Assembly: GCA_045837725.1 (NCBI GenBank)
Contig: JBEWZL010000202.1
Location: forward strand, 186,001 to 250,000
Direction of reading: 5' to 3'
From: Vermamoeba vermiformis
Lineage: Eukaryota
Length of the DNA: 64,000 bases
The translations under genes and the position numbers were made by a program. Below, one piece after another: positions 5,277 through 59,951 of the stretch; position 1 is the stretch's first letter, and each line of letters starts with the position of its first letter. The notes under the pieces were generated by a model, which worked only from the letters and a program-made list of their open reading frames with translations, was not told where the DNA came from and made no database searches.

Positions 5277-8200
5277 TTATTTTCTAGGTGCCCACATGGC
5301 AGAGTTGCCAAATTGAGGAGGCTGTGCTGCAGGTTGAGGTGCTCCACCAAAGCCGCCAAAACCGGTCGTTGGCTGTCCTCCACCAAAGCCAGGCGACGAT
5401 GAGGCAAGTTGACTGAAAGGACTTCCACCAGCTGTAATTACACAGGTTAATATTAAGTCATAGCCGTGTATGAAAGGCAACGTACTGCTTGGTGAACCAA
5501 AAGTGCTGCCAGATCCAAAGACACGAGGTGCGTTAGTAGTCGCTTGAATTTGTTGTTGTACTGCTTGAGGCTGAAGTAACGGTCAGGTAATGATAACAAC
5601 AGATTGACGTATGTCACGTTGAGGAAGCAGACCAATGACTTACGTTTCCAAGACCGAAGCCAGGAGTTGCAGGAGAGCCAAAAGTTGAAGTAGATCCAAA
5701 CGACGCTGTTGGGCCACCTAAAATAAAGGTGTTAATGGATGGAAACAAGGTATGGCTTTTGGGCACTTACCCAATGAAGAGCTTTGACCGAACACGGATC
5801 CAAGCGAACTTTGTTGACCGAATGAAGCAAAAGGCGAAGATCCAGAGCTTGGCGCTGGTGTGCCAAACGATGTTGTAGGCGCGCTAGGTTGCGCAGCAGG
5901 TGTCGATGGTGTAGAACCGAAGCTGGATCCGAAGGTCGGTTGCGTCAAGAAGGATCCGCTAGTAGTACCACCAAACAAGTTGCCAGTAGATGGTGTAGTG
6001 GTAGCTGCTGGCGTGGTTGTGGCGCCACCGAAAGGATTCGTAGCTGGTTTATTAGGCTGTGCTGCGGGTCCTCCTAATGACAAGCCAAAAGACAGGCCAC
6101 CCGTGCTCGTGCCACCAGGTGCAGTGGTAGCTGAGGGTTGTGTTGTGCCAAAAGTGCTTGGCGTTGATGGTGTTGATGGTTGTGCACCAAAGCCGAAGCT
6201 TGGCGTTGATGAGCCGAAGCCAAAGCCAAAACCTGACGAAGTATTAATAGCTAAAAAAAAAGTGTGACAAGCAAATGTCTTACCAGAAGCAGGGGTGGCA
6301 GGGGTTGTGGGCTCAGTAGGCTTAGCCGCGTCAGGCTTTGCAGGTGTAGTAGTAGCTGCAGGAGTGCCAAAAGTGCTTGTAGTACCTGTTGTCGTGGTTG
6401 CAGGAGCGGATCCCAATCCGAATGTGCTCGAAGAACCCGAACCAAAACCAAAAGTGCCAGATGTGCCGCTCGAACTACCAAATCCAAAGCCTGTGCCAGT
6501 AGTAGTGGATGTGGTTGATGGGGCTGTAGTGGCCGTGGTGCCTGTGGCAGTAGTTGTTGCCGTGCCCGTAGTACTCGTGGCAGGAGTTGATGTCGCGGGT
6601 GTTGTTGTGGCTGTGCCAGTAGTAGTAGGCTTGCTACCATCAGTGCCCGGTATCGTGCCAAAGCTGAACGTTGATGAGCCTGTGGCAGGTGTGGTAGTTG
6701 CAGCAGGCTTCGTGTCAGTCTTTGGTGAAGACGAAGTTGTGGAACCAAACGTGAAAGTGCTTGAGCCCGATGTGGGAGGCTTATCACCGCTAGTAGTAGT
6801 GCTTGGTCCGCCAAATGTGAATGAGCTACCTAACGTGGTGCCAGCAGGCTTATCAGTAGATGGTGCGGATGTCGCGGGTTTAGTTCCCGGTGAGGTCTTT
6901 GGATCGGATGTGCTCGTGCCAGTGGCGGGTTTAGTGGCGTCTGTAGCGCCCAAAGAACCAAACGAGAATGTGCTTGATGTGCCCGTTGCTGGCTTCGTGT
7001 CACCTGGCTTTTTGTCTCCGCCAGTGGGACCACCGAACGAGAACGTGTTTGCACCGAGAGATGACAACGAGCCAAAGCCTAATGAGGAAGTTCCACTCGT
7101 GCCTGAGCTAGTCGAAGGAGCTGTTGTGGCGGCGGGTTTGTTGGTATCTGACGTTGTCGTGCTTGGTGCACCAAATCCAAATGAACTCGTGCCAGGCTTG
7201 GTTGAATCGGCCGTGCCGAAGCTAAATGATCCCGAAGTGCCTAATGGCTTTGCTTGGTCTGCTGGCTTCGGAGATACTTTTGCAGCACCGCTCGGCGGCA
7301 CCGCGCCAGGACGAGGACCAGTGGTTTCAACATAACTGTCTTCTGAGTCCTCACCTTCTTCTTCTTCCTCGTCTTCCTCTTCTGGATCGTGGTAAGACAC
7401 AACTAAAAACAGCGTCAATAAAATTATTTTGTGAAACGATCAAGTGTGCACAATCCGGAATTTGAGCTCGGATAAACTGTCTAATGAGACAAGCCATCCG
7501 AAACTAATAGTTTAAACTTACGTGTTTGAGGTGCACCAGTCTTTCTCTTCTCTCCCGGCTTAGGTCCGGTCATAGCAGTGGGTGCAGGACCCTTTGTAGC
7601 TCCCGCATTGAAATTGAAAGCAGATGCGGGGTTGGAAGTAGATCCGCTCGTATTTAACGTGAACGGCGCTGCGGTCGTCGATTGGGCAGGCTTGTTGGTA
7701 TTGCTACTGCCAGTAGAAGGTTGACCGAATGAAAATGACGAGCCTGTCGTTCCAAAACCGAATGATCCAGAACCATTCAACGAGTTTCCAGAAGTTTTGG
7801 CAGCAGCGACAGGAACTTGGGGACGAGGCTTAACTGGTGATGGCTTGGCCTGCTCGGGCTCTTCGTATTCCTCCTCAGGAGTACCTTCTTCATCGTCGTA
7901 TTCCTCGTCGTACTCTTCGTCTTCTTCCCACTCTTCTTCCTCGTCTCCGTCTTGATCTTCAGCCACGCCAAATTTGATGCGGCCAGTAGTAAATTGTGTT
8001 CCGCTTGCGGATAAGGATTTAGCAGGGGATGGTGTCGGTTTGATTAACGCGGAATTGGTCAAATTAGGCACGCCAAACTTTTGCCCAGCCAAAAAGTCTT
8101 TGTTGTCGCTTGTAGCCTGATTACTGTTCGTGTTAGGCGCCGTTGGTTTTTGCTGCATTTTCTTCAACATCTCCGCGGTCGAGAGTTCTTCGTCAATAGA

Positions 8201-21248: not shown

Positions 21249-22516
21249 TTATTCGAGGCCTAGCTCTCGTCGCTTGGCCTTCTGAGTGATTAATTGTTGT
21301 CTCCATTCTAATTTAGTATTTCTCTTAGTCTGAGAGTGAATAGGCACGAAGTAAGGCTCAACTCCCTAACAAACAATATCGTTAGATTCGTGTACTGGAT
21401 TAGATTTTGGAACCAAAGAAGAGCACAACGTTAAATTGGACACCAAATGTTATCAAGTGTCTCGTAACAATAATTTCTATCGGAGACAATGATTTTACGA
21501 GGCAGGTGCCGCTAGCAAATGCCAGATGTGCACGGAACCGTCCGGATGTTCGAAGCACTCCATAAACACCGCAATTTACTTTCAATTACTAAATTTTGTC
21601 ACACAAGCGTGCAAGTGCGTAATTTATATTTAAAAAAAAACTTACCCTCTTGTATTTCTCGACCCAGTTGCGGATCCACTTGCGTTGGCGGATTGGGATG
21701 CCAGCTGCCTTGAGTGCCCAGCGGTCAGCACCCATGAGCTTCTCCCAAGACTCGAACTTGTCAGTATATTCGGCGCATCCTCGGCCAATAGTCTTCAAAA
21801 ATTTCTCAACAGTCATGTCGCCTACATCCAAGATCACGATCAGTCAAAAAGGTACGAGAAAACTACTGTAATTTCATTTGCAATTATAAATTATTGATAA
21901 ATAACGATCCAAAATGAATATTTAGAGCGATAATAATTACCTCTAGGTGCGGGTAAGTCTTCCTTTGGTCGAACAGGTGCAGGTTTTCGTTGCGGGTAGC
22001 CCTGCTCAGGAGTATTTTTGAAATAGCTCCAATCAACCTTTTCCACTAAATTTACTAATCGCCAGTGCAATTTTTCTTTGGCTTGCATTGGTTTGTATGT
22101 TCGATCGGGGAGTTCGACTATGTTTGAAATTCATTAGTGTCTTGCAAGGTATTTCATCGTGTTTCATACAATTTAAATATAATTGTGTTAATATATATTA
22201 TTTAAATCTATTAGAGGCGTCGTTGAAGCCTTCTACGGTTATTCAATAATTATTTGAATAAATCCATAAAAATCATAATAATTATCTGCTAGCTTTGGTC
22301 GGCTTGATATGTACCCTGGTCTTCTGGAATATTATTTAATGATAGTGGTTCATTAGATTTTTGTTGCTGTTGTTGTTGAGGGCGTCTTTGTTGACGTCGC
22401 GATGCGTAACATCTTGTCTGATTTGCTGCGAACAAACTCGAGGCTGATACACATGTGCCTGTGACTCTATTGAAGCCACCAGTAGGCAACAGTCTCTTTG
22501 TAATATTGCTCAGCAT
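21249..22516 (-). CDS. FYV4: Mitochondrial small ribosomal subunit protein mS41 (Fyv4-like, IGR motif)
   Basis: Presequence-like N-terminus MLSNITKRLL.., then VEKFLKTIGRGCAEYTDKFESWEKL...LKAAGIPIRQRKWIRNWVEKYKRG. Confidence 0.85.
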
Positions 22517-22592
22517 GGTGGTCTGTAATATAAAATTTATAACGAATAGTTTTTCATTTTCACGTCGACCAGATCCAACAGAACACACGACA

Positions 22593-22883
22593 ATGTATCA
22601 ATATCAACGTGATGTTATTAAAAGAGCCAAGACTGGTGATTCTACGGAGTCAGAGACAGTCACTTGGGGCTACATCTTGTTGGCTGGCACGGTGATCGCG
22701 TATCTGGTCATAATCTACGCGACAATAATTTCCAAATTATTTATTCCTGACACTGGTAATGCATTCTTGGACTGGATAAAGCACGACAAATATTATTGTT
22801 GGTTACTACCGGCTATGATCCCCGTCACATTCTTCTTCGTTTACTTGAACTGGATGAGCTTGAAATTCTTCAGACATAATTAA
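22593..22883 (+). CDS. PIGY: GPI-GlcNAc transferase subunit PIG-Y-like protein
   Basis: 96 aa with two TM segments; the C-terminal motif is DKYYCWLLP..IP....YLNWMSLKFFRHN. Confidence 0.85.
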   Translation: MYQYQRDVIKRAKTGDSTESETVTWGYILLAGTVIAYLVIIYATIISKLFIPDTGNAFLDWIKHDKYYCWLLPAMIPVTFFFVYLNWMSLKFFRHN

Positions 22884-34569: not shown

Positions 34570-36661
34570 ATGAAACAGGTAAATCCATCCGAAAAAATAA
34601 TTCAATAATTAATTTATTGATAGACTACTTCTTGGAATTCTATATTTAGCGCTTTGGAGAAAAATGAACCGTTCCGTATCGATATGCAAGAGATTTTTTT
34701 CTGCATTCCGATCGGGATCGCAAATGAACATCTTTCCGAAGCTATTAGCAGCAGTAAATGGTTAAAAATAATAACAATTCAAGAAGATGATTTTGATGAG
34801 CGTGATTGGCAAATTCTAACTGCCGGAATAATTAATTACAAGAAGCTAGATCCTGAAAAATACCATTTTCAGCTCTGTTGCTCACGAATATCAAAACAAA
34901 ATATTAAGTATATCAACGATATTATAGAACGAAGTCAAGTGCGGCAGATTCGATTTCAAGACATTACGTTTGAAGATCCTTCAATTTTTGAAAGTTTCTG
35001 CGGCGCATTGCAAAGAAATGGTCCTCGCTTGTTGAGAGTTGAAATATCAACTAATAGTCTAACGAACGATCAAATAGAGCAATTAACAACCGTCTTAAGG
35101 GACGCTAATATCCCAATAGTTAATTTACAAAAATTTCAAGTAAGTCATTACGAGCGGATCCAATTGATCACTAACAAAAAAATTATAGATATCAATAGCA
35201 TCATCCATCGATGATATTGCAAATTTAACCTTGAACCAAAGAATTTTTACGATTGAGAATATGACAGCATTGAAAATTAAAAACGGTCCTTGTTCGGGCA
35301 TTGGATTATTAAACAAAGCAATTAGTTTATCAACATCACTAAAAAAGATCATAATTAAGCCAGATAAGTGTTCATTTAGCGATTTAAAATACCTCGTCAA
35401 ACCAATAGCCATGAACGGATCCATTCGCACGCTGCAATTCCATTTCAACAGTTATATGAACCAAAATGAAATTAAAAAATTCCTGGAAATTATTCCGCAT
35501 ATTTACAACACGGATCGGACAAGGAACTCAATTCAATTCAATATTGACGGTCCGTATCCCCTCTCACTATTCGTTTTTACGACCTTGGGCGAGATGCTCA
35601 ACAACTGCCATTCACTGAACCACGTGGATTGTCACGTGCGTTCTGATATGCACGATATCGCTGATACACTGATTAAGGCAACTAATTTGACAAGTTTGAC
35701 AGTCGACGCATCACAACGATTTGACACTGCAAATATAGCTCGGTTGGTTCGAGGAAATACAAATTTATCGAAATTGTCGTTTACTGGCGAAGGAGAGATT
35801 AACACCAATTTTGAAATCGAAAAATTAATGGAATTGTTCAAGATTGAAACGTTGACAGAATTGAATTTAAATGCAAGAAATATGTCGCGTACAGCGTGCG
35901 AACAAATAGAAGCTGCTATATATAACAATGAGACTATTAAGTCATTTTCGATATATTTCAATTTCCACAGATTCTTGAGCTTCGACAATCAACAGAGCAA
36001 TAACGATTTTTTTCACGAGATCTTACTTCGGAACAATACAATTACAGCGTTGGACGCCACACAAATATTCTTTCGAAATTCTGAGCATTATCAAATGTTT
36101 TTTGAAGGCCTGGCTCAAAATAGAACGCTACGCAGTTTATCTTGGAACTTTTCTTCGAACAAATTCCAATTTCAACAAATTACGACAGGATTAGCGAGAA
36201 ATAGTACGCTAACGCAATTACACCTTTTCGTTGGCAGCTACAGCACGGAGATATTATTCAGCGATAGTATGGTCGAGTTGTTCCGAGCCAGTGACAGCGT
36301 CAAAAAAATCATTTTCACAATCGTTGATTCTACCAAAGAGATGTTACTAGAGACATTATGGACTCACTGTAGAATTGCTTTATGGGAGAATAAAGCTTTA
36401 ACGGAGGTTCTAGCTTTCTCGCTGGCTAAAGAACAGTTGCCGTCAGATCCAAAAGTCGAGCAACTTTTACAACGAAACAAAGAGCAACAACAAGATAATA
36501 CTATGAACACGACATTATTTATCAAGCATATTGCGTCTAAGCCTGATGTGTACTTGTCGTTGTTGCCTCTAGAAGTGTGGTCAAACATTTTCAAATACGT
36601 TAAGTATCCTGGCATTCAAATTGACTTTAGTGAACTTGTAATGAACTATTGCGGTCAATAA
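34570..36661 (+). CDS. RNI-like leucine-rich repeat protein with a C-terminal F-box-like motif; 3 exons
   Basis: Repeated xxNxTLxxLxL units (NTNLSKLSF, NETIKSFSI, NNTITALDA, NRTLRSLSW, NSTLTQLHL, NKALTEV); terminal LSLLPLEVWSNIFKYV. Confidence 0.8.
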
Positions 36662-36724
36662 ATCATTTTTTAATGCTTGATTAACTTAAAGAAATAAACT
36701 CCTCCTTCAACCTGGTTTGAACGG

Positions 36725-38743
36725 ATGAGGATCGAGGAGCCTTTATTATCGATGATAGGAGGAAAAGTGCTGATTTTGCTATTGAAGGAAATCTCGTCGT
36801 TATTTTCATGCGTAATTTGAAAATAAGAAAGCACGTGCTAAGCTAAATTAAGCTGACGTAACCATTGGGAAAACAGAACGAACCTATTTTTGATAATGGA
36901 GAACACGTAGCATCGAAATTCAATAGTTCAATGTTTTACTTCTTCCTATTTTGCCAGACGATTTCGTTCTGGTGCGGATTCGCCACCTTTTGGATCTACC
37001 TGCACTGGAAGTACGTTTAAAGACCATTTAAAATTTTGCAAATATTCTCATAATATTATAATCAAGTAACAACGTCATATCATGGTATTCAGAAGGCTAA
37101 TTAAATTCTTTAGCGAATTAAAAAATGCGCCTCAAATTTTACTGCGCCACAACGAACAAGTGAAGCCTTATTTACCGTTCCTATTGCTCAATATACATCA
37201 CGTAGTACCCAATCTACCGCTATTAGTGCCGAGAATGGATAAACTCGTTCCTGCATTTCCCGTGTTAATGAAAGATCCGAAATCTGCACGTGTACTAATG
37301 AAGAATTTGAACAAAATGGCGCCACATATGGACCTATTAGTCGATAATATGGACAAGTTATTGCCGCATTTTGACAAGCTTCAGCCTCACTTGCAAATAC
37401 TTTTAGACAACGCAGATGTGCTCGTCCAAAATTTCGATCTGCTGATGAATAATATCGATCAGTTAGCACCACGAATGGACAAACTAGGTCCATATTTACC
37501 CATATTAATGAAGAATATGCCAAAGATGGCCCCGCACATGAACTCTATGATGAAAAATTTGGATGCGTTAGTATCACATCTGGATCAACTTGCACCGTTC
37601 ATGAACGATTTGATCGACAATATTGATATGCTAGCACCTCACTTGGACATGCTCTCGAGCTACATTGACGAGATGGCACCTCACATGTCACAACTAATGC
37701 CGCACATGAAGCAACTTTTGCCCTTGTTGCCCAGCTTGAAACCGCACATGAAAGTGCTCGTAGCGCAGATCGATCTGTTGGCACCAAAAATAGATGTGTT
37801 ATTGCCCAATATGGACATACTCTTGCCATATATGGACCCATTAATGCGAAACTTTAGCACTTTGTACCCGCACATTGACGAGCTTTTGGCACGAGTCGAT
37901 CAACTTAAACCTCACTTGCCTTTTTTGGTAAAGCACATCGATCAGCTCGCACCGCACATGGACGCCTTGTTGCCTTATATGGATCAGTTAGTGCCGATGA
38001 TACCGTTGTTAGAGCCTCACACTGACAAACTTTTGGCGCACATGAACGAGCTCAAGCCACACTTGCCGCAATTGATCCCGTTAATGCCTGACTTATTGCC
38101 TTATATGGACATACTCTTCGACAACATGGACGCACTCTTGCCTAAAATAGACCTTATCCTTCCCAAAGCAAAGCAACTATTGCCTTATTTGGGCCGGTTA
38201 AAGCCGTACCTCCCAGCACTCATCGAAAACGCTGACAAATTACTGCCGCACACCGACAAGCTTTTACCGCACGTGGATGCGTTAATAGGACACTTGCCTA
38301 TTATTCTCAAGTATAAGAAAGAAATTCTCGAACATGTGGATCCGCTCGTTGAACACATCGACATTTTGGTCCCATATTTGGACTACTTAACACCGCATTT
38401 GCCTTCTTTGATACCTCAACTCGAAGAAGTATTGCCAAATATAGCAGCATTAATTAATCAGTTCGGAAAAGCATTGCCATACACGCACGGTCTTTTGCCC
38501 GCTGCTGCAGGTCTTCTACCAGGGCTCGGAAAATTAGCGGCAAAGATGCAGCAGCGCCAAGACAAGAAAAAAGAGAAAAAAGAAGAAGAGCAGCGCAAAG
38601 CCGAAGAGAAGAAAAAAGAAAAAGAGGCCAAGAAGAATACGCCAACTAACGAAAAGAAAACTAACAGCAGTCCTAAAAAGGAAAAAACCAGTGTTCTTCC
38701 GAGTACGTTCACTGAACCAATCGATGAGTACTCTAACATGTAA
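36725..38743 (+). CDS. Predicted membrane-anchored proline-heptad repeat protein of unknown function (5' exons inferred)
   Basis: 553-aa ORF at 37082-38743. An in-frame upstream exon encodes the TM-like MFYFFLFCQTISFWCGFATFWIYLHW, with a possible first exon from the ATG at 36725. The C-terminal tail is Lys/Glu-rich. Confidence 0.85.
37139..38533 (+). repeat. About 65 tandem 7-aa (21-nt) degenerate repeats, consensus L-h-P-[HYN]-[MLI]-D-x
   Basis: For example LLPYMDP LMRNFST LYPHIDE LLARVDQ LKPHLPF LVKHIDQ LAPHMDA LLPYMDQ. The register is broken only once, by a 3-aa insertion. Confidence 0.92.
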
Positions 38744-38856: not shown

Positions 38857-40516
38857 TTACAACATCCAAAACAAGACCATGCCGCCGAACAACCAAATCA
38901 CCATCAATGCCCAAGCACCGAAAAACACGATCTTCTTCCACCTGCGGAAAATAGATCCATTAGCTCAAGGGTTATAATACCATTAATATAATACTTACTT
39001 ATCACTATCTAATTGACCAGCAAATAATCCACAGCCAACAATAAAGCCAGTAATCAAACCGCCAAAACTACGAAAAATTTTTTTGTTAGTAATGATTCGT
39101 TATTAATATTATGATACGTACTGCGCTGCATTATCAACATAAGCAGAAAATCCAAACAAAAATGTGACGCTAATCCAAATCAAACTTTGAGTCAGCGCCA
39201 TTCTTCGTTGATTCGGATCCGTCTTTTGCCACGTCAAAATTGTTTCAGCCAAGTAACCGCCCATCATGCCCATCTATAATTATTAATATAGGTCCCTAGT
39301 ATATATAAAATATAACTTACCAAGGCCCCAGAAGCACCGACGGAGATGGATCCGGGGTTCAAAAGACACGACATCAACGAGCCTCCAACACCCGATGACA
39401 AGTACGTCAGCACGAACAACACCGTGCCCCATTTACGTTCAAGATACAAACCAAAACGAAGCTATATTAAATAAGTTAATGAGTCACTAGGTAAATGTGC
39501 TCGTTCGGATCAAGATCCGTGAAAAAATTATGCGTGCACAAAAACGATAAAAATAGCGTCAATTATTTAACAACTAATAGTATCGATTTGAATACATATG
39601 TTATATTATTATAGATGGATCTGGGTCGAAGAAAAATTTTTGCAAAGGTTTTGGAAGGGTTAGTACACGTACCTGAGCCAGCAAATTGACGAGCAAATGC
39701 AAAATTCCCGCGTGCAAAAATATCGGCGTGATAAATCGCCAAATTTGGCCTTGTTTGATGAGTGCTGCGGACTTGGCTCCGAGTTTAATGAATGTGTCCG
39801 TGCCTGGACCGATCGCTGGGTTCTCTGAAAGCGGAATAATTCCTCCCATAGCTAGAGCTACGATCAACATGACGATCTAAATATAGCACATATTAATTAT
39901 CATTTTTTTAAATCGAGATCCAGCGTCATGAACAGATCGAATCTTCAAAAATTATTTTGAACGATGAAATTAATAAATTACTCTATTAATATTTATAATT
40001 AACTTACTTGCACGAATGAAATAGGGACGCAAAATGATTTGAGGCTTTTGAAATATTCAGATCTACGCTCAGAGCCACAAGGATTGACGCAGCAAGGACA
40101 ACACATCAATAAGAATGTACGACCACCTCCTGTAGCTGGTGCGTGCTTGACTTCACCGTTCATATCGATGTAGCCGATCTGTCAATTTTATGAGAACTTT
40201 TCACGTCATACCAAAGCATTAATAACGATAGAAAAATAAAATAAAATATTTAACCATCAAATAAATCATTATTTTCGCGATGATATTGATTTTGAAGCGA
40301 ATGTAATTAAATTGGAATTTTCGAAAAATCTAAATCCGATTGGATTCGCATTGATCGGCTCAATATAATTACCTGTGGTTGTGTAGAATATGTATATCCA
40401 CTTTCTTCATCGCCAACAGGATAAGGAGGTTGTCTTGGACCTCTGACCCAATCATTGGGCAATGGTCTCGTGTTCTCGGTCCTTTCTAGGTCTTGAAGCG
40501 TTCTTATATTCGACAT
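38857..40516 (-). CDS. Rhomboid intramembrane serine protease
   Basis: GQIWRFITPIFLHAGILHLLVN, SVGASGALMG (catalytic Ser) and VDNAAHFGGLITG (catalytic His). Confidence 0.95.
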
Positions 40517-40844: not shown

Positions 40845-42333
40845 TTAATAATACTCAATTTGCAAATTCTTGTTATTAGTTGCCCCTATAATTTTCTGCC
40901 CCACTAATTTGACGATTTCATCGCGCAAATACATTAAATTATCGGGCACAATATCTGCTTCGGTGGGATCTGAATCGTTGTTCCATCTCGCGGTCCAAAT
41001 AGTTGCTTGCTTCTGTAATTCTTCGAATTGCCGGATTTGGGTAGGATTATCGACCCTTTCTAATAGCACTCCACACCAATTGGCAGCTAAAATCAAGATC
41101 AGTTCCGGATGGACCATTTTTTTTAGATTCGCTTACCACCGATTGCCTCGACGACTGTATTAGCGTGAGCCACAATAGCTGGAAGAAATCGAGCAGGAGG
41201 GTAGTACATGAAAGAGACTACAAGGCTCGATTGAGGCGAAAGCTCTGCCGGAAGCGCATCTACGACTTCCATTTTTGGAACTAATCCATACTGCGATAGA
41301 TGGTCGCGTACTGCGTTAAACAGAACATCAATTGACTTGGTATTCATAGCACACGTCTTCTTATCAAAGTAGACAGTAAATTGTCGCGAGAGGTTCTGGT
41401 ATTGAATCTGCTTCTGCTTTTCTTGCCGAATTTTTTCTTCGCGAAGTCTTTCTTCTGCTTCTTGTCGCGCCCTATCTTCTTCTCGTTGTCGCTTTAATTC
41501 TCTTTCGCGTTCTTTTTCTCGTTCTCTTTGTTGCCGTTTTTCTTCTTCCTCGTAAGATCGCTGTTGGTACGCTTTTCTTTCCAGATCTCGGAGCTTTTCT
41601 TGCAAGGCCGCATTATCTGAAACAAGATTCTCCACCTTATTCAAAAGGTTATTGGCCAACTTGTGGAGCTCTTTAACTTCTCCTTCGAGTCGTGAAATGG
41701 TTGCCGCTGAATCCAGTCGTGTTGCAAAAATATTGCCAGTTGTAACTACGGGGATGCTAGTAGCGTGGAAGCCTATATAGTGGCCAAGTTAAATATATTA
41801 ATATAGATCTATTTATTGAAAAGTTCATGTAGCGTACTTTTTGGATTTGGAAGTCTGTCCAAATCTTTCAACGAATGCTGAACAAACGTCCGCAAGCGAG
41901 CTCCATAGGCATCAACGATAGCTTGCATTTCTACCAGTGAGTTTGCGTTTTCCAATTTCTATAATAAACGAAATTAATTCTTTATGAAACTTGGATGTAG
42001 ATGCATGACAACTTACTTCGATTATTTTAGCGTTTTCCAATTCCATAAATGATTGAAAATTATCAGCGGGTTGATAGACAGCCTTGTTTTTTGAAGCCTT
42101 CGAATACCACGGTTTCTTTTCGAATTGCTGCGTCAGTTCATTTTTGAACTCTGAGAAGATCTCTTCGCCTAAGTTTGTGGCGTTATGCTGATACATGCAT
42201 CTAAAATTAATATATTAATACATATTTTGAAAAGACTTAATGCTTACATTACTTGTGTGCGGAAATCCCAATTCAGTGCATCCGATGAGGAAGTCAAAGA
42301 TTTGCCCACTCCGTCATATCTTTTGGAACTCAT
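40845..42333 (-). CDS. Protein of unknown function with a central charged coiled coil and a C-terminal alpha/beta domain
   Basis: The exons join in frame from MSSKRYDG..; there is an E/R/K/Q-rich helix, and the protein ends NLQIEYY*. Confidence 0.7.
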
Positions 42334-45667: not shown

Positions 45668-48600
45668 TTAGATACCTCCTTTAAGCAATATTATTAGTCA
45701 CTACTTACGTAATTTTCGCTTGAGTTCAGCGTTTTCGTCTTCAAGATCTTTGACTTTACGTCGCAAGCGTTCAAGATCATCAGTCGTGGTGTTCTCACTC
45801 AGATGATATGATGAGTGCTGCATAGACGTAGTCATATTACGACCGTGTGCCTTCTTAGTATCAGATTTATCTATAATAGTAATATTAGAAATGAACTTTT
45901 GTGCGTTGATCTAGATCCGAATCTACTTACCGGCAAAAGAGTAATAAATCTTAGGCAAGAAAATGATAGCAATCGATGAATATAGACCCCATAGAATAGC
46001 AACAGTTCTATTAAATTACTTGGTTAGTGAAAAAAGTCAAGCGTGGATCCGCTCAAGTTGTCATTACCTAAAAAGGAAATCCAAGTATCTGTCGGGGATG
46101 CGAATGATGTACAACACGAGCAGTACGAGCGCTGCAAAGCACAAGTTATATAGACCGATGAGAATGTACTTGGACTCGTTGTACTCGGTCTTCACATTGC
46201 GACCAATCAAGCCCATGATCAACGTGAACAGAATGATCAGACCCTAATAATAGCATTACTATCATATAATATATGACCATATATATCGACTATAGTACTT
46301 ACGTTGTACGCAATGAGAGTGATTGCAAATGGCATTTCATTTGTTGCATCGCACACGTGGTAGTTGTGGATCGGTCTGAAACGATGAATTTGCATTAGTA
46401 CTTGCTATCATATAGTCTTATATATATATATATATGTACAAGTAACATACCTAGTAACATCAGGCACGACAGTGATGGCCCAAGGAGGATAAATCGCTGA
46501 CCACAAAACCATCACGATCTGTTGTTTGACGCGTTAGTCGACGAGATCCACAAAGACTATACTGCATAATATCGCTTATACTTACAACACTCGCGGAGAT
46601 GATGACAGCCATGATCTTCAAACCAAACTTCCAGTCCAAGACGTAGCTGGGAGGTCGCTTCTTGCCTTGGATCAACCACACTCGGTACATCTTGACAAAG
46701 TAGACACTAGGACACGATAATGTTAATACCGATATTTTTCATATAATAGTATGTTATAGCGCAGTACCTGAAGAGCGTTGTGAAGCCAATCACGAACAAC
46801 CAGTAACGCGTCAAACAGCCCCCGTTGTCGACTTCCAAAGTCCAGAAGAAGACTACATAGTACGTTATTAGTATGATATAATCAATAGTAAGGCAATGAG
46901 TAAATGTATTAAACTTACTAGAGCCGAAGACCAATGAAGTTCCGAACAAGCAAATGGCGCACAAGACGACTGAAGCGGTGGCAATTGGCGGTCGTTTTCT
47001 CCACACGCACATCATAATGATCTGTAGTATAATACATTAATTACAAGAACGAAGCTCGCACGTAGTTAACAACGAGAAAGAATTGGTCAGATCTGACACT
47101 TTGACACGTGTCACAAGATGTCATTGCCAAACTACATTGACTGATTGTAATAATATGGTACTTACTAAGGTCCAGCAGACAAGGAAACCAACGCCAGCGA
47201 CAACAATCAAACCAAGCTCAGCACCTTGAGCGTACCATTGGAAGTTTTCAACGCGCTCGTTCCAAGTGGGCATCGGATACACCACTAAAAACACGACATT
47301 AGCACTATAGTATATTAATATAAACTATATTTCGTACCATCGACTGCTTGTGAGGCCAATGGCGTTACAACTTGCACGGTGTTGTTGACGTCAAACTGCG
47401 TCGTGACACCCAAATACGAGGCCAATTGACCAGTTGCAAATTGCAACAGACCGTAGAAACTAACGTCATTGACCTGAGACCGACAGTTAGATTACGTATA
47501 TACCATATGAGTCCTATAATATTATATAGTAGTGTTAGACGTACTCGTGACAAGTGCTCGTTCACATCATCAAGATTTAACGTGCCCGCGCGTTCGAAAG
47601 CTAATTGCAAAGCCATTCCTCCTGCGTACTGCGCTGCTGCTTGATAACTAAACGAAAATAAACTTAATAAAATTATTCCATAATTAAATTATGTTTTTTT
47701 CTTCTGGGATCAGATCCACGATTGCTAATTAATAAATTAATTTAGTCTTATTACCTTGGTTCGACGCCAAATTCTTTTACGAATGCCTCGTAAAATAATT
47801 GAGGGCTCTGCTCGGAATCAGTGCTCGGGAAATGTTGAACTGAAAGCTCGCCAGTCTCAGAATAAAATCGACCAGTAAGTTGTCTGTTCCATTGGACAGG
47901 ACCCATAACGTATCTACATAAATGTTAGTATTAGGTATGAAAATTAATTAGGAAATTAGTTACCTTCCATCGTCGCCAAGGGCAGAAACGTATTGACTGG
48001 GCGTAGCTAAAAATAGATCGCGGTTAGAAAGCGTTTAATTGCGCCGGAATTATTGTAGATCTATATTTAAAAATTACTACGTACCGACACAAATTGAAAC
48101 AACGAAGGCTTTCGCTGAAAAGTTGAGCTCTTTGCACTGACGGATGAATTCTTGGCAACCGACGTCGTAGACTGCGGCAAGCACAAAATCTAAATATGAT
48201 ATTACTCCGTTAGTGCGTCGTTAAATTTACCTGCTGAATATAAATAGATTCATCAAAGTTATGAAATTGAATGGATTTGGGATCGAAGTAAAGTATAACC
48301 ACGTAATCAATATAAAATGGGACCGTATCAATATATGCCGATCTATTGTCATGATAACATACCAGGATTCTTATCTTTGAGGTCCAAGACTACGTTTCTA
48401 ATGTTTTGACGAACGGTATCGTCCAACAAGCCGATCCTCGGGATCGAAGTATTATAAACAATTGAAATAGCATTATCTGTAGCTGCGTTTAGCCCTCCGG
48501 AATGGAAGAACCTAATTTCATGATTATTAATACGCTTTTAAAGTGGATGCCAATATTACAATATTTTTTTGTACACGAATCACAATCAGTTCAATTTAAA

Positions 48601-49507
48601 TAACCCCAATATTATAAATCGATTATAATGATACTTACACTGTCGCTCCAGAGTCTTCAAAGAACGCTCCGACGGATCCAGCGCCCTTGATCTTCATCAA
48701 TTGGACAGCAGGAGGAAAGAACGCAGTGGATCCCGACAGCATGCCGTATAAATATCGAAATCTGCGTCCTTGAGTCGTTGTGCACGGGTACAACATGCTT
48801 TTGTCGCATGCGTAAAGGTTTTCGGTGCTTGCTCCGGCTATTTAACGAATCCAGTAAATTTCAGTTACAGATTCAAGCGTAAATTGGATTCTTTTGTGTA
48901 TAGATATACAAGGTCACGCGCATTATTTAATATGAATATTTTGGTTATTGATCAAGATTTGCAAAACGTATACTGCATGTCGGATTTAATAACATACCTG
49001 CAATTGAAATAATGCCAGCAGGCTCGCTAATATTCGCGGCGTATCCCGTTAGGTCGGAGCTATATGGCGAGAATATGGCATGAATAGTGCCGTAAGTTCC
49101 GTTGACAATCGCTCGGATGGCAGCTTTAGTGTTATTTTGCAACGCCGAATCTGTCGTGCCGCCACAATCCACTAAATATAAACGTCATTAATATACCATT
49201 ACGCTAATTAAATCGAAATTACGCTCGATCTGGTTTGGAATATCGTATAATTTAATAAACGGTTTTTATTGGATCGGAGCGACTTACTCTGAATGATTTC
49301 AACTGGATATTTGACGCCATTAATATTAAATCCACCACGCGCATTAACATTTTTTTGCCATAACAACGTTGCATTAAGCACTGAATTAGCAAGCGAGCTG
49401 TATTTTCCGGTCAATGGTTGCGGGACTGCAATCCGGATGTTGTCGCTGCAAACGAGGCCGCAGAGTAGCCCTAATACTACTACTATTAACACCTTTATGG
49501 CGCTCAT
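45668..49507 (-). CDS. Class C (GABA-B/Grl-like) GPCR with a periplasmic-binding-protein-type ectodomain
   Basis: Signal peptide; IAVPQPLTGKYS..VNARGG and SPYSS (LivJ-like); TM region with FVKMYRVWLI, YNESKYI and FLPKIY; coiled-coil tail. Confidence 0.9.
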
Positions 49508-49789
49508 ATTGCTATGCGTATTTAAACAAGATTCGAAAATAGCTTCAAAAAAGTGATGACGAGCTGTCAATGATGTAACCTTTTTTTAATCGCCCAGTCC
49601 CATTCGATCCTCGAACGGTCACATATGTCAAAAACAATAGGACTAGTTGCAAACGATCAGATCTGTCGTCAACAAGGTAAATCCGGTTGAAAAATTGCAT
49701 TCGAAAGCCCGCGTTCGGAAATTTAGTTCTAAATCACTCTTATCGCACAATTATAGTGAATACCACGTATAAGTTAATTTGTGCGCGTA

Positions 49790-56125: not shown

Positions 56126-59100
56126 TTAAGGCTGCGAGATAGTAGGCACAGTGTTCGGGATCGAGCAGTATCCAGCGGAGTTGGATGCGCAAGTCGCGTT
56201 AATGTTGTAAAATCCTCTCCAAGAATAGACGTTGTATAATCTAGACCCTTGAGACTCCCAGTACTCGGCTGAGCTTCCAGTTTGCCATGGATCGAGCATC
56301 TTGATGTACAGATGCGGTGCTTGGAAGAAATAATACGTGCCATTGCCAGCCATAACTTGCGCTAATGATGCGGCTTGGAGTAAATTCGTCTTTCTTGAAT
56401 AGTCTTTCCAGCTCAATGAAATGTTGAAAGTTGTGCCTGCGGGATAATTCGTCGCGAATAAGACCCATTGGCCAAACGGGACTTGATGCAGACCAACGCG
56501 CATGGTACGAGGTGCGCCCTGGTTGATCCACACGTGCCAACCGACCTTTGACGCGCCTGTCACTTGCGGGGTACGTGTCATTTTGCATGTCTTGTTGACT
56601 TGTGACACGCCAGCAGGAAGATAGAACAAGCTCGTAACACCAGCCTATAATATTAATATTTTAATATCTAGCTTTAAGATAAGAAAAAATTGGGTTTGGA
56701 AGGTGAAATTTGCGAGGAAAACTTACGTCAACATTCGCGACGGACTCGGATCCGTAGGGACCTCCGCCGTCATAGTCGATCCAGCCAGGCACGAGAGGAG
56801 CCAAACTGATGACTTCTCGGCTGCCTTTATCGCAATAATGAGCTTTCCAATCGGGCTGATACACGCACGTGTTGTCGTAGGCCCACCAAGTCGGGTACGA
56901 GCCGATGATTTGCGGCACGCTACGACCGACAGTAGTTCCGTCGTAGTCATAGATACTGAAGTAGCGTGATGAACCCGTATCACGGTAGTAGTTACGCACA
57001 CGCTGGCTGTATGGCACGTTAGTGTACGTGATGTTCTTGACGGCGGCGATGCCTTGAGGCTTGTACACATCGCTGTGAGTCAAAGCAGTGAAGATGATGT
57101 TGTCTTGAGTGGGGTCAAGAGGAGCGTTAGGCACGGGCAAGAAGTTTCTGTACTCGACGTTGGTAATGATTGCCTTGACGTCCGTGTCATAGAACTCGAA
57201 ACCGTTGGACTTGCGACTAGGCGAAGCCAAGTACTGCGTGTTGTTAGTCGTGGCTGCAATGAGGGCTTGATCGAGGTAACTGCTGAAGAGACGGCCAGCC
57301 TTGACACAATCGTGTGACTCGTACTTTGTGACTTGAAGTTTGATGCCCCAGAACATAATGCCAAGATGACAGGCAAAAGTCTTGGTGTTCGTGAAGTTGT
57401 TGAAGGCAACGGGATTACGAGACTGGCGTCCAGTATCATACTTGAGCAATCCAGTGGCTGTGTCAGTCCATAATCGGCCTCCCATGTAGATGCAAGGAAT
57501 GCCCTCGCCGACGTTGGTAAAGCCCGCAGAGTGTGCCGTATTGCCGTCAAACTCGAGTACAGGCCTGAGTTCTGGCACCACGGAGACGTTTGCGCTCAAG
57601 CCAATAGGCTTTGCCAAATTAGGAAAAGCGAAGCCGGCCCAACCACCCGAAGCAGCATTGCCGAAAATACGATTGTAAGCATTGGTGATGTAAAAACCTG
57701 ATGCGGCAACGTCGGCGGGCAAAGTCAAGTTTTCGTTTTGCGTGAAGACGTTGACGCCAGCTTGGCCAGTGATAGCATTAGCGTAGATCGTGTGAATATG
57801 CGAGGCCAAGTTATATGCAATAGTATTGTTCTCTTCAACACCTTCTTCCAAGTAATAGCAGAATCCACGTACATCATACGCGACGTTACGAATGACGCTG
57901 GCTTGGTGCGTGCCGTGAATAGAGACACAACGGAAGAACGAGCGTTGAACGGAACAATCGCGCATGAACGAAGTCGGGGCCTGACCAATCATGTGGAAGT
58001 GGAAAGGATACCGCGCCAAGACGTTAGTTTGACCCATGCGATAGGCACGCACTCCGCTGAACCGGCCTTCACCACGGACCATCACGTGACCACCGAAAGA
58101 TTGGGTTTCAGAGTCGGGTGAGCCTTGAATGGTAATTCTACGCGATAACAAGCCAACTTCAGCTTGGTACTCGGCACCGGCGTAGTGGATGTAGACAAAA
58201 GTTTCGTTGAATTGGATTCTACGGCCAGAGATAGCAGTGATAGTCATAACTTCGTTCTTCTTAGTCTCTTCGTCACGGAGGTCAGTTGAAGTAACAACGA
58301 CTTGTTGGCCCACGTGCCAGTTAACGTTGTCTTGGATCCAAATCTGGTTGTCGCCGGGCCAAGCAGTTGCGGCCAAACGAGTCCAAGTATAGTGATATTG
58401 CTTGCCGTGAATATCGATCTTGCCAGGGACACCAATACCCTTGCTGCCCATGAACGGACCAATGGTGTCGGATGTGCTCTTCGATCCGTACAAAGTAATC
58501 GTGATCTCGGAATAGAGACGGCAGTTCTGCGAGCCAATGCGCAAATGACCTTGCACGAGCATAGCCTTGATGTTCAAGTTGATAGGAGCGTCGTTGAAGA
58601 TCAACTCGCTGCCAGCAGGAACGATGATCTTCTCATAGACAGCCGTTGAAAGTGAGCAAGAAGTGATCAAGACCTTCGAATTGGCAGGAATCGTAATGAC
58701 GGAACTCGGTGAGGGAACAACACCACCCCACGTCGCGTTATCGTGCCACAACTTGAGACCAGCTTGCAAATGCGGGCACTCAGTTCTGTTGTTCAGATCC
58801 AACGTGGTCGAGGGCTTGCGAAGCGTGACAAACTCGGCGTTCTTAGAAATCAAAGTAGGCGTTGTAATGGGCGTTGGCAAGACGTCAATGCGGAGCTTGC
58901 GGAATTGCAGCAAAATTGCACGACCGAACGAAGCTGTTGTTCGGAAGTAGGCGGCAAGAGGCACGTTAGGAGCCAAGTTTCCCTTTGACGAGACGGTTCC
59001 TTCGAACTTGACCCAAGTCGTGGACCAATTGGTGAAGTTAGCTGCTGAAGGCTGATAGTCATATGTATAGGTCGAGTTGGTGCCGGCACTAGGAGGAATA

Positions 59101-59951
59101 GGCTGGTTGGCAAAAGTTGTTTTGAACAAGGCAAATTTCACTTCCGCAGGCGTGATGGCGGTGTCGTTAGTGCTGACTTCAAACGAGAACTTGTACTTGA
59201 AATCCGCTTGGTTGCGAACAAAAAGCAAGTCAGTCGTCGGCACGAGCCACCATTGTGTCGAGTACCAGTTGGGCAACACAGCGTTCAAAACCAATCCGGT
59301 ACTGTCCGTGGTGTATGACAGTGTCGGAGACCACCAGTCAGTAGTAATCCTCCAGCCAGTGGGGTATATTGAGACTTGCGGCCGAGTGCTCGAAAGTGCT
59401 GGTGAAGTGGGAACCGTATCAACGGCAACCGGATCTGCGGAACACGCAGCATTGACGCCACTGAGCATAGCGTTGGCGCCTTCAGAAAGGGTTAGCGTTA
59501 GTGTATGTTTATAGTACTCGACAAGGGCTACACGTACCAAAGATAGCGAGACCCACTGCTTTAGTCTTGGTGTTCAGTGAAAGGGCCAGACCGACGAGTC
59601 CGAGCAATGAGATACTCGCTGTAGCAACCGAATCACGGTGCAGCAATGCACTAGCGCGTTCCTATAGTAATAGGGCATGGTCAGAATCATTTGATTCAAT
59701 TTCAGTCGTTGCAACCGGACAAAAAAATCTTTGTTTCAGATCCGCAGATCAAAACTTGAATTCGTTGATATGCTGCCCGGTGCTTTTGAAGTGTTAGTAG
59801 TACGTACCAATTGCTTCAGAGACATGAGTTTAGCGTCGTTGGATGACGTAGTGCTTTGGTATTGGTTGACGCATTGCGTGGCACTGGATGTGGCTGCAAG
59901 ACCACATAGGAGAGCCACAGTGAGAGTGGCTAGTAATAAGTGACCACGCAT
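56126..59951 (-). CDS. Secreted G8-domain/beta-helix protein (TMEM2/CEMIP/PKHD1-like)
   Basis: Signal peptide; WHDNATWGGVVP..VITIP (G8), TWTRLAATA, AEVGLLSRRI, MGQTNVLARYPFHFH, RCVSIHGT and CYYLEEGVEENN. Confidence 0.92.

Follow-up and report, generated by a model that had tools for sequence, protein, structure and literature searches.

A proline-containing heptad-repeat protein of Vermamoeba vermiformis, its protist relatives and a possible role in membrane tethering

To our knowledge, nearly all that is known of the tethers of membrane contact sites and of the scaffolds of lipid transfer comes from yeast and animals. Protrudin (ZFYVE27) combines a membrane anchor with a coiled coil and a FYVE domain, and proteins of the Ist2/STIM type join an anchor through a linker to a polybasic C-terminal end; a further use of helical heptads is found in the bacterial MCE transporters, with their coiled-coil needle and tunnel. 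The PX, PH, FYVE and C1 domains read the lipids of cytosolic leaflets, PX and FYVE being typical readers of phosphatidylinositol 3-phosphate (PI3P). Mdm1 is reported to be anchored in the endoplasmic reticulum (ER) by N-terminal transmembrane helices and to use a PX domain at its C-terminus to bind, in trans, the PI3P of the vacuole (PMC4539980); the spacer of Ist2 is reported to be intrinsically disordered (protrudin and Ist2 papers: PMC7371716, PMC12617493). The subject of the present study is a gene on the plus strand of a 64,000-nucleotide stretch of DNA from Vermamoeba vermiformis (GCA_045837725.1, contig JBEWZL010000202.1, positions 186,001 to 250,000), referred to as the window, which encodes 65 proline-containing heptads between an aromatic hydrophobic segment and a basic tail. 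Taking sequence, structural model and analogy together, we give about even chances to the proposal that its product, anchored at the N-terminus and lying in the cytosol, is a helical-repeat spacer or tether whose membrane-binding head can be swapped.

A spliced gene and its heptad array

The array lies within an open reading frame (ORF) of 553 amino acids (aa; 37082-38743, plus strand). Set in rows of seven, its sequence (37166..38530, plus strand; ORF residues 29-483) resolves into 65 heptads, or 455 aa, with the unit consensus x-L-h-P-[H/Y/N]-h-D. A single unbroken register is kept by 58 heptads from 37313 onward (ORF residues 78-483), and the first ~7 heptads (ORF residues 29-77) are shifted by 3 residues relative to it. 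Position 2 is L in 50 of the 65 units, position 3 is L, A, V, I or M in 52, position 4 is P in 40 (62%) and position 6 is L, M or I in 48; position 5 is H, N or Y in 46 units and, with K, Q and R counted as well, has a side chain able to donate a hydrogen bond in 55, and position 7 is D in 31 and P in 10. This count bears out the first-pass annotation of the window, made from its letters and open reading frames, which had described ~465 aa of heptads with one 3-aa break and with Pro in ~60% of the units.

The periodicity is strong by each measure retained. The positions of Pro have a period-7 power of 13.8, whereas 300 shuffles averaged 1.08 and never exceeded 6.7. The self-identity of the array is 0.18-0.35 at every offset that is a multiple of 7 (0.25-0.35 up to 34 heptads), while other offsets average 0.065 and reach 0.146 at most; in this self-identity, nothing longer than the heptad was prominent as a period. 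Two further measures were discarded: a loose heptad score matrix, in which shuffled sequence scored too, and a regular-expression count of register changes, in which the variant with P at position 7 was counted as well. The hydrophobic residues give spectral peaks at periods of 3.5 and 7.0, which is the 7-residue periodicity of a canonical coiled coil, but the heptads are not Pro-free as those of a canonical coiled coil would be, given P at position 4 and position 7 as counted above. At the level of DNA, Tandem Repeats Finder (TRF) reported no tandem repeat in the array, its only calls being A/G-rich runs at 38559-38645, within the tail; the mean identity among the 21-nt units is 41%, and all four Pro codons, together with several Leu codons, are in use. 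Because TRF is silent in the array, its units have diverged to this extent and the four Pro codons are all used, the array is an old repeat, maintained as protein, rather than a microsatellite, in agreement with the earlier remark that its DNA is too degenerate for a recent one. No paralogue of the heptad protein was found elsewhere in the 64-kb window.

The array is joined by splicing to an upstream exon. One contig of the public run X4, which is labelled only "RNA?", connects 37010 to 37114 (depth 4.5, with 34 letters on the shorter side of the joint), skipping a 103-nt intron with GT..AG ends (37011..37113, plus strand). No such joint occurs in the DNA run X1, where 31 contigs span the whole stretch, and the unspliced frame through 37011-37113 meets a stop codon. 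X4 is taken as transcript-derived because, in the neighbouring gene on the minus strand, its contigs also pass from 38941 straight to 38999, skipping a gap (38942-38998) that has GT..AG ends on that strand. The second intron of the first-pass annotation thus exists, its 3' end lying at 37113 and not at 37092 as had been given; with either end the reading frame is preserved. Downstream of it, the last exon (37114..38743, plus strand) holds the array, a conserved cap, the tail and a TAA stop codon in one open frame, and is covered by X4 contigs over 37114-38642 at ≥99% identity. Upstream, the exon at 36877..37010 (plus strand; 3' end set by the X4 joint at 37010) translates to a sequence with an aromatic hydrophobic segment of 26 aa (MFYFFLFCQTISFWCGFATFWIYLHW), as had been claimed from manual splicing, and the same joint shows it connected to the array. 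A proposed first exon (36725..36811, plus strand; MRIEEPLLSMIGGKVLILLLKEISSLFSC), with the intron placed after it at 36812-36876, is a candidate only: it begins 64 bases past the stop codon of the upstream gene, reads through openly and is then followed by GTAATT, and X4 depth is 0 across it, as it is over the whole of 36661-36921. An alternative in-frame ATG at 36931 is as good as the proposed start at 36725, and would put this segment at the very start of the protein, as in the relatives P0001, P0034 and P0153 introduced below; the choice of start codon sets the length of the predicted protein at about 570-616 aa. The locus, on whose transcription the first-pass annotation had staked its reading, is present in spliced contigs and is a real, spliced and expressed eukaryotic protein-coding gene.

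A second variant was seen in X1 at 36535-36634, 38153-38275, 38494-38509 and 38897-38959, with roughly a third of the depth; its substitutions are clustered, it has no indels, and it represents either an allele or a second strain present alongside. It changes 10 codons of the coding sequence, and since 9 of these changes are synonymous and the sole replacement, A to T, falls at the variable heptad position 1, it gives a small but clear sign of purifying selection.

No known family accounts for the protein. In a Pfam scan none reached its cutoff: DUF948 (PF06103) scored 22.1 bits against 37.2, with no stretch passing alone and with generic Pro-free coiled coils matching it too, Mce4_CUP1 (PF11887) 15.3 bits against 32.6, and HEAT_EF3_GNC1 19.5 bits against 27; among the models listed at E≤1 there was none for LRR, ANK or apolipoprotein repeats, and no PXA, RGS, PX or PXC domain was recognized by Pfam. 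The best sequence match in the PDB was a designed six-helix antiparallel barrel, sc-apCC-6-SLLA (8qae; E 4.5e-5), and full-text literature searches, judged at the level of abstracts, returned no description of such a repeat.

With 58 aligned sequences, AlphaFold2 (AF2) predicts the exon-3 protein to be all-helical, with a mean predicted local distance difference test score (pLDDT) of 75.8 and a predicted template modelling score (pTM) of 0.54; the means of 10-residue blocks are mostly >90 (88-98) from residue ~250 to 500, and a 236-aa piece modelled separately (window 37847-38554) reaches a pLDDT of 94.5 and a pTM of 0.81. The predicted helices run for 13 to 93 residues and are parted by single non-helical residues, which fall at position 5 of Pro-free heptads (LVKHIDQ, LLAHMNE, LFDNMDA, LIENADK) and not at the prolines. 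The "kinked-helix solenoid" suggested earlier thus describes the prediction fairly, since the model is all-helical and interrupted by single residues at regular intervals, with the breaks moved off the prolines. By helical-wheel arithmetic, positions 2, 6 and 3, which are the hydrophobic ones, span ~100 degrees with Pro nearly opposite; so narrow a stripe would be bundle-like rather than apolipoprotein-like, and the occupancy of position 5 suggests that its donor may make up for the backbone bond removed by Pro. An all-helical prediction of this confidence with Pro in so many heptads is unusual, and makes the protein a test of how periodic Pro is accommodated in helices.

Searches for a solved structure of similar shape gave little. 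Foldseek of the model against the PDB and BFVD returned no match at E≤1e-3. With VIA-align, by which Z 8-13 is treated as the meaningful level for helical repeats, the best match was at Z 6.0 for the 236-aa model (root-mean-square deviation (rmsd) 4.9 over 164 residues; 203 of 48,161 chains reached Z 2) and at Z 7.1 for the full model (rmsd 4.8 over 165 residues). In these searches the predicted fold had no clear solved analogue. With no family at the Pfam cutoff, no sequence relative in the PDB other than a designed coiled coil, and no fold match reaching Z 8, the protein is uncharacterized, as the first-pass annotation had it; no confident full-length match to a described repeat family was found, and by Pfam the repeat is not of the LRR, ANK, HEAT or apolipoprotein kind, none of which reaches its cutoff.

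Relatives, conserved cap and distal heads

A phmmer search of 1.84 billion representatives with the window protein matched 333 proteins at E≤1e-3, of which 75 were at ≤1e-10 and 2 at ≤1e-30. At least about 90 of the 150 matches listed share its motif. Two or more L-x-P-[HY]-h motifs were present in 94 of the 152 proteins compared, and the heptad protein is, on this comparison, not an orphan, with at least about 90 relatives. That the kinship is a true one is argued by the conserved cap together with a BLASTP alignment to P0153 (E 2e-57, 30% identity), which is collinear over residues 55-497, that is, to the start of the tail. The named members are Pellita catalonica among the Amoebozoa, Triparma columacea and Mucochytrium quahogii among the stramenopiles, and Symbiodinium species and Breviolum minutum among the dinoflagellates; by sequence, the protein belongs to an unnamed protist family, absent from Pfam, that occurs in several supergroups. 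Their source names read only "hypothetical" or "PH domain-containing." A family consensus of [D/P]-x-L-[L/A]-P-[H/Y]-[L/I/M] was derived from 1684 motifs in 107 proteins and matches the array of the window, the set having been chosen by the presence of ≥2 such motifs.

Other searches added little to the family. A word-indexed profile search with alignment A1 returned 8 proteins, all or nearly all of them among the phmmer matches, and the ESM Atlas gave no usable match. A scan of metagenome loci with the window protein confirmed none; the same scan with P0008 yielded one locus, L001, which carries the last 76 codons of an orthologue at the end of a contig and has a downstream gene different from that of the window. 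No confirmed relative was found with the cap alignment in viral contigs or with the 236-aa piece in prokaryotic genomes, both being weak tests that detect close relatives only. Three groups of matches were excluded from the family: Pro-free phmmer matches, which are generic coiled coils that match dozens of coiled-coil Pfam models; P0132, P0031 and P0070, which are perfect minisatellite translations (LYPYIHT, ILPHISK or LVPSIPR); and P0024 and P0104, giant proteins with Pro every 7 residues that match by periodicity, and which we take to be named AHNAK-like.

At its C-terminal end the array is closed by a conserved cap (38342..38554, plus strand; …LVPYLDYLTPHLPSLIPQLEEVLP…FG..LPYTH..LP…LLPGLGK), recognized by alignment. 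It has 13 invariant columns in a 6-sequence alignment (A3), and its pattern across the family is …PHL..L……LP…..FG..LP..H…LLP.LGK. A full match to the cap ends the repeats in nine proteins (P0006/P0153, P0007, P0016, P0009, P0025, P0053, P0061, and P0074), and the cut fragment P0073 matches the first 52 residues of the cap. Beyond it, the Lys/Glu-rich tail noted in the first pass (38531..38740, plus strand) comprises 70 aa, is net basic (K+R 21, D+E 14), and is kept in P0008 (69% identity) and in L001:3-233. The tail terminates in FTEPIDEYSNM-COOH (38708..38740, plus strand), and corresponding ends are found in P0008 (FTELIDDYSNL) and in the L001 frame (L001:201-233; FTEPIDEYSKL), such that the terminal motif FTE[PL]ID[DE]YS[NK][ML]-COOH is common to the three while the spacer preceding it varies. 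This acidic-Tyr motif resembles what we take to be either a tyrosine-based sorting motif (YxxPhi) or an Atg8-interaction motif, like the LC3-interacting region (LIR).

Among 87 motif-bearing proteins scanned for fused domains, 19 carry one that binds lipid: PX in 9, a START-like Polyketide_cyc domain in 4, PH in 3, FYVE in 2 and C1 in 1. A further scan added one PX and one more START-like domain, as well as a PH and a C1 below cutoff. Two other domain matches were discounted, one to PAP2 in a protein that is a spurious minisatellite product and one, SbsC-like, without a passing stretch; these aside, wherever a partner domain is recognizable in the family, it is lipid-binding. The PX, PH, FYVE and C1 domains always stand C-terminal to the repeats, where the window protein has its basic tail, and the START-like domains stand N-terminal to them. 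Among the 12 proteins with PX or PH, a hydropathy window marks hydrophobic segments on the N-terminal side of the repeats in 9 and none in P0051, P0115, and P0116. Among collinear relatives, a Kyte-Doolittle window flags a hydrophobic N-terminus in P0001 (residues 3-35) and P0034 (residues 1-29); the N-terminal resemblance of the window protein to P0001 (MFY…) is not significant (E 0.39). Because proteins that share the cap end in C1 (P0016, P0061), in FYVE (P0009, P0025), or in basic tails (the window protein, P0008, and P0074), the distal end of the family proteins appears to be a swappable membrane-binding head. The link to lipid comes from domains fused in relatives and not from the rod itself.

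A proposed membrane tether and its alternatives

In the proposed mechanism, the N-terminal hydrophobic helix would anchor the protein in one membrane, with the bulk of the chain in the cytosol. The Pro/His heptad array would form a rigid body of helical repeats, closed by the conserved cap and serving as a spacer, and the distal head, namely the basic tail in the window protein and a lipid-binding domain in its relatives, would then engage acidic lipids, either in the membrane opposite or in the one that holds the anchor. An anchor, a spacer and a lipid-binding head are also the layout of Mdm1/SNX13, protrudin and Ist2, which tether organelles to one another. The repeat is presumed to be cytosolic because the fused heads read lipids of the cytosolic leaflet.

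A number of points weigh against this proposal. No partner domain was recognized in 68 of the 87 relatives scanned, many of which are fragments, and Pfam recognizes no lipid-binding domain in the window protein. The N-terminal hydrophobic segment, being aromatic, scores only ~1.2-1.5 on the Kyte-Doolittle scale, and could in principle be a signal peptide. The basicity of the tail is moderate (net +7 over 70 aa) and mixed with Glu, and a lone charged helix or a site for binding protein would be an equally good reading of the tail. The scores of the model do not say whether the body is elongated or compact, which bears on its supposed use as a spacer, and action in trans is indistinguishable from action in cis by sequence.

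Were the action in cis, the protein might form a scaffold or coat on an endolysosomal or phagosomal membrane rich in PI3P or acidic lipids, its repeat lying along the membrane and recruiting proteins, with [DE]-Y-S-x-[LM] serving as a sorting or adaptor motif. PX and FYVE heads do dominate the fusions, the terminal acidic-Tyr motif is kept in three orthologues while its spacer is not, and the named members of the family are protists, several of which are presumably phagotrophs or osmotrophs with large endolysosomal systems. However, the START-like fusions are easier to place at contact sites and the assignment of the Tyr motif is tentative, and a scaffold of this kind is considered unlikely. 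A different use of the array is suggested by the hydrophobic residues at three of its seven positions (2, 3, and 6; an a/d/e-type pattern), by its best PDB match, sc-apCC-6-SLLA, at the E-value given above, by the START-like lipid-transfer domains of 4 relatives and by the sub-cutoff resemblance to Mce4_CUP1 and DUF948: the array itself might handle lipid, either as an oligomeric helical barrel with a hydrophobic lumen, like the MCE needles, or, as the first-pass annotation suggested, as an amphipathic lipid-binding rod. Such a role seems distinctly improbable given that AF2 folds a single 236-aa chain at a pTM of 0.81, such that the stripe may be satisfied within the chain, that this stripe is narrow (~100 degrees) and the Pfam matches lie far under cutoff, and that unrelated Pro-free coiled coils give the same matches, which reflect periodicity and not kinship.

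The abundance of His invites the thought, voiced already in the first-pass annotation, that a ladder of His, with Met and Asp, binds metal or switches conformation or charge with pH. The array holds 25 His, with 35 K+R and 49 D+E, and full protonation of His would move its net charge from ~-14 to +11; among the 1684 family motifs, the residue after Pro is His in 39% compared with a background of 3.8%, in proteins that were chosen partly by the motif itself. Yet the His, Asp and Met of one heptad are not on one face of the helix (i+1, i+2), and position 5 also takes Tyr, Asn, Lys and Gln, which a hydrogen-bonding role would fit at least as well; moreover, a protein placed in the cytosol by its fused domains would meet little change of pH. 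Sensing is, for these reasons, held to be highly improbable. Very little credence is likewise given to a cleaved signal peptide and a repeat that serves as a lumenal, secreted or cell-surface structural protein: a hydrophobic segment at or near the N-terminus would be expected of it, but relatives end in PX, PH, FYVE or C1, and neither a pattern of Cys nor an enrichment of sequons was apparent by eye in the array.

Returning to the anchored spacer with its exchangeable head, the protein is best filed as a helical tandem repeat in a membrane-anchored, lipid-targeted scaffold, with an unusual repeat unit. A wider claim, tentative and in our view rather doubtful, is that the array represents an undescribed class of helical repeat that bridges protist membranes, in which Pro would lie opposite the hydrophobic stripe, Pro-free 'D-N' heptads would form corners, the number of units would define length, the head would be interchangeable, and the START fusions would hint at lipid transfer. 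If the tether reading is true, the length of the spacer would be adjustable in heptad steps and the system would hence be easy to dissect.

Genomic setting and comparison with described systems

The gene lies among a varied set of neighbours. Directly upstream is a leucine-rich protein of 476 aa (35231-36661, plus strand), RNI-like by eye and without a Pfam match at cutoff, and directly downstream is a rhomboid protease encoded in several exons (39267-39876, minus strand, and the region of the skipped gap at 38942-38998). Elsewhere in the window are a PIG-Y subunit (22422-22880, plus strand), a DDRGK-like protein (41126-41788, minus strand) and pieces of a family-C G protein-coupled receptor, with 7tm_3 and a periplasmic-binding-protein-like domain (46710-47036 and 49211-49585, minus strand). 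A 573-aa frame at 5721-7439 (minus strand) is rich in FSFG/GFGFG and in Thr, Ser and Pro, and appears nucleoporin-like in its FG repeats; it has a GC content of 0.52 against ~0.39 for the window, and no Pfam match. A single ORF of 970 aa at 56664-59573 (minus strand; GC ~0.49) carries G8 and CEMIP beta-helix domains, its best named relatives being G8 proteins of dictyostelids (41-50% identity); unnamed metagenome proteins reach 88-91%. These values point to an amoebozoan other than a dictyostelid as the probable source of the window.

Among described repeats, those of the AHNAK type and the minisatellite translations (P0024, P0104, P0132, P0031, and P0070) share with the array a Pro every 7 residues, but they differ in motif, are without the cap and L-x-P-H-h-D, or derive from exact 21-nt repeats of recent origin; all were judged to match by periodicity and not as relatives. 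Three hydrophobic positions per heptad are also a feature of coiled coils and alpha-helical barrels, such as sc-apCC-6 and the MCE/PqiB needles; the array differs from them in the Pro that occupies 62% of its heptads opposite the hydrophobic stripe. The nearest solved shapes are de novo helical repeats (8v2d_J, 8eox/8eoz, 8g8i; Z 6.0-7.1), which are designed and not natural relatives.

The plan of the whole protein is closer to that of the known tethers than is its sequence. No homology to protrudin or to tethers of the Ist2/STIM type was detected, and the heptad spacer is predicted with confidence to be helical, unlike the spacer of Ist2; the resemblance to the protrudin/Ist2 pair lies in the distal ends, the cap-sharing relatives P0009 and P0025 carrying FYVE and the window protein a basic tail. 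Compared with Mdm1 and the SNX13-SNX14-SNX19-SNX25 group, the window protein is without PXA, RGS and PXC, its relatives carrying PX only, the basic tail replaces PX, and the middle is formed by a 7-residue Pro/His repeat with no sequence kinship to theirs; the two would nevertheless have in common an N-terminal anchor and a long helical region in the cytosol, followed, in relatives of the window protein, by a C-terminal PX domain. If the heptad protein is indeed a tether, its family, spanning Amoebozoa, stramenopiles and dinoflagellates, would be a solution to the same design problem that protists share across lineages.

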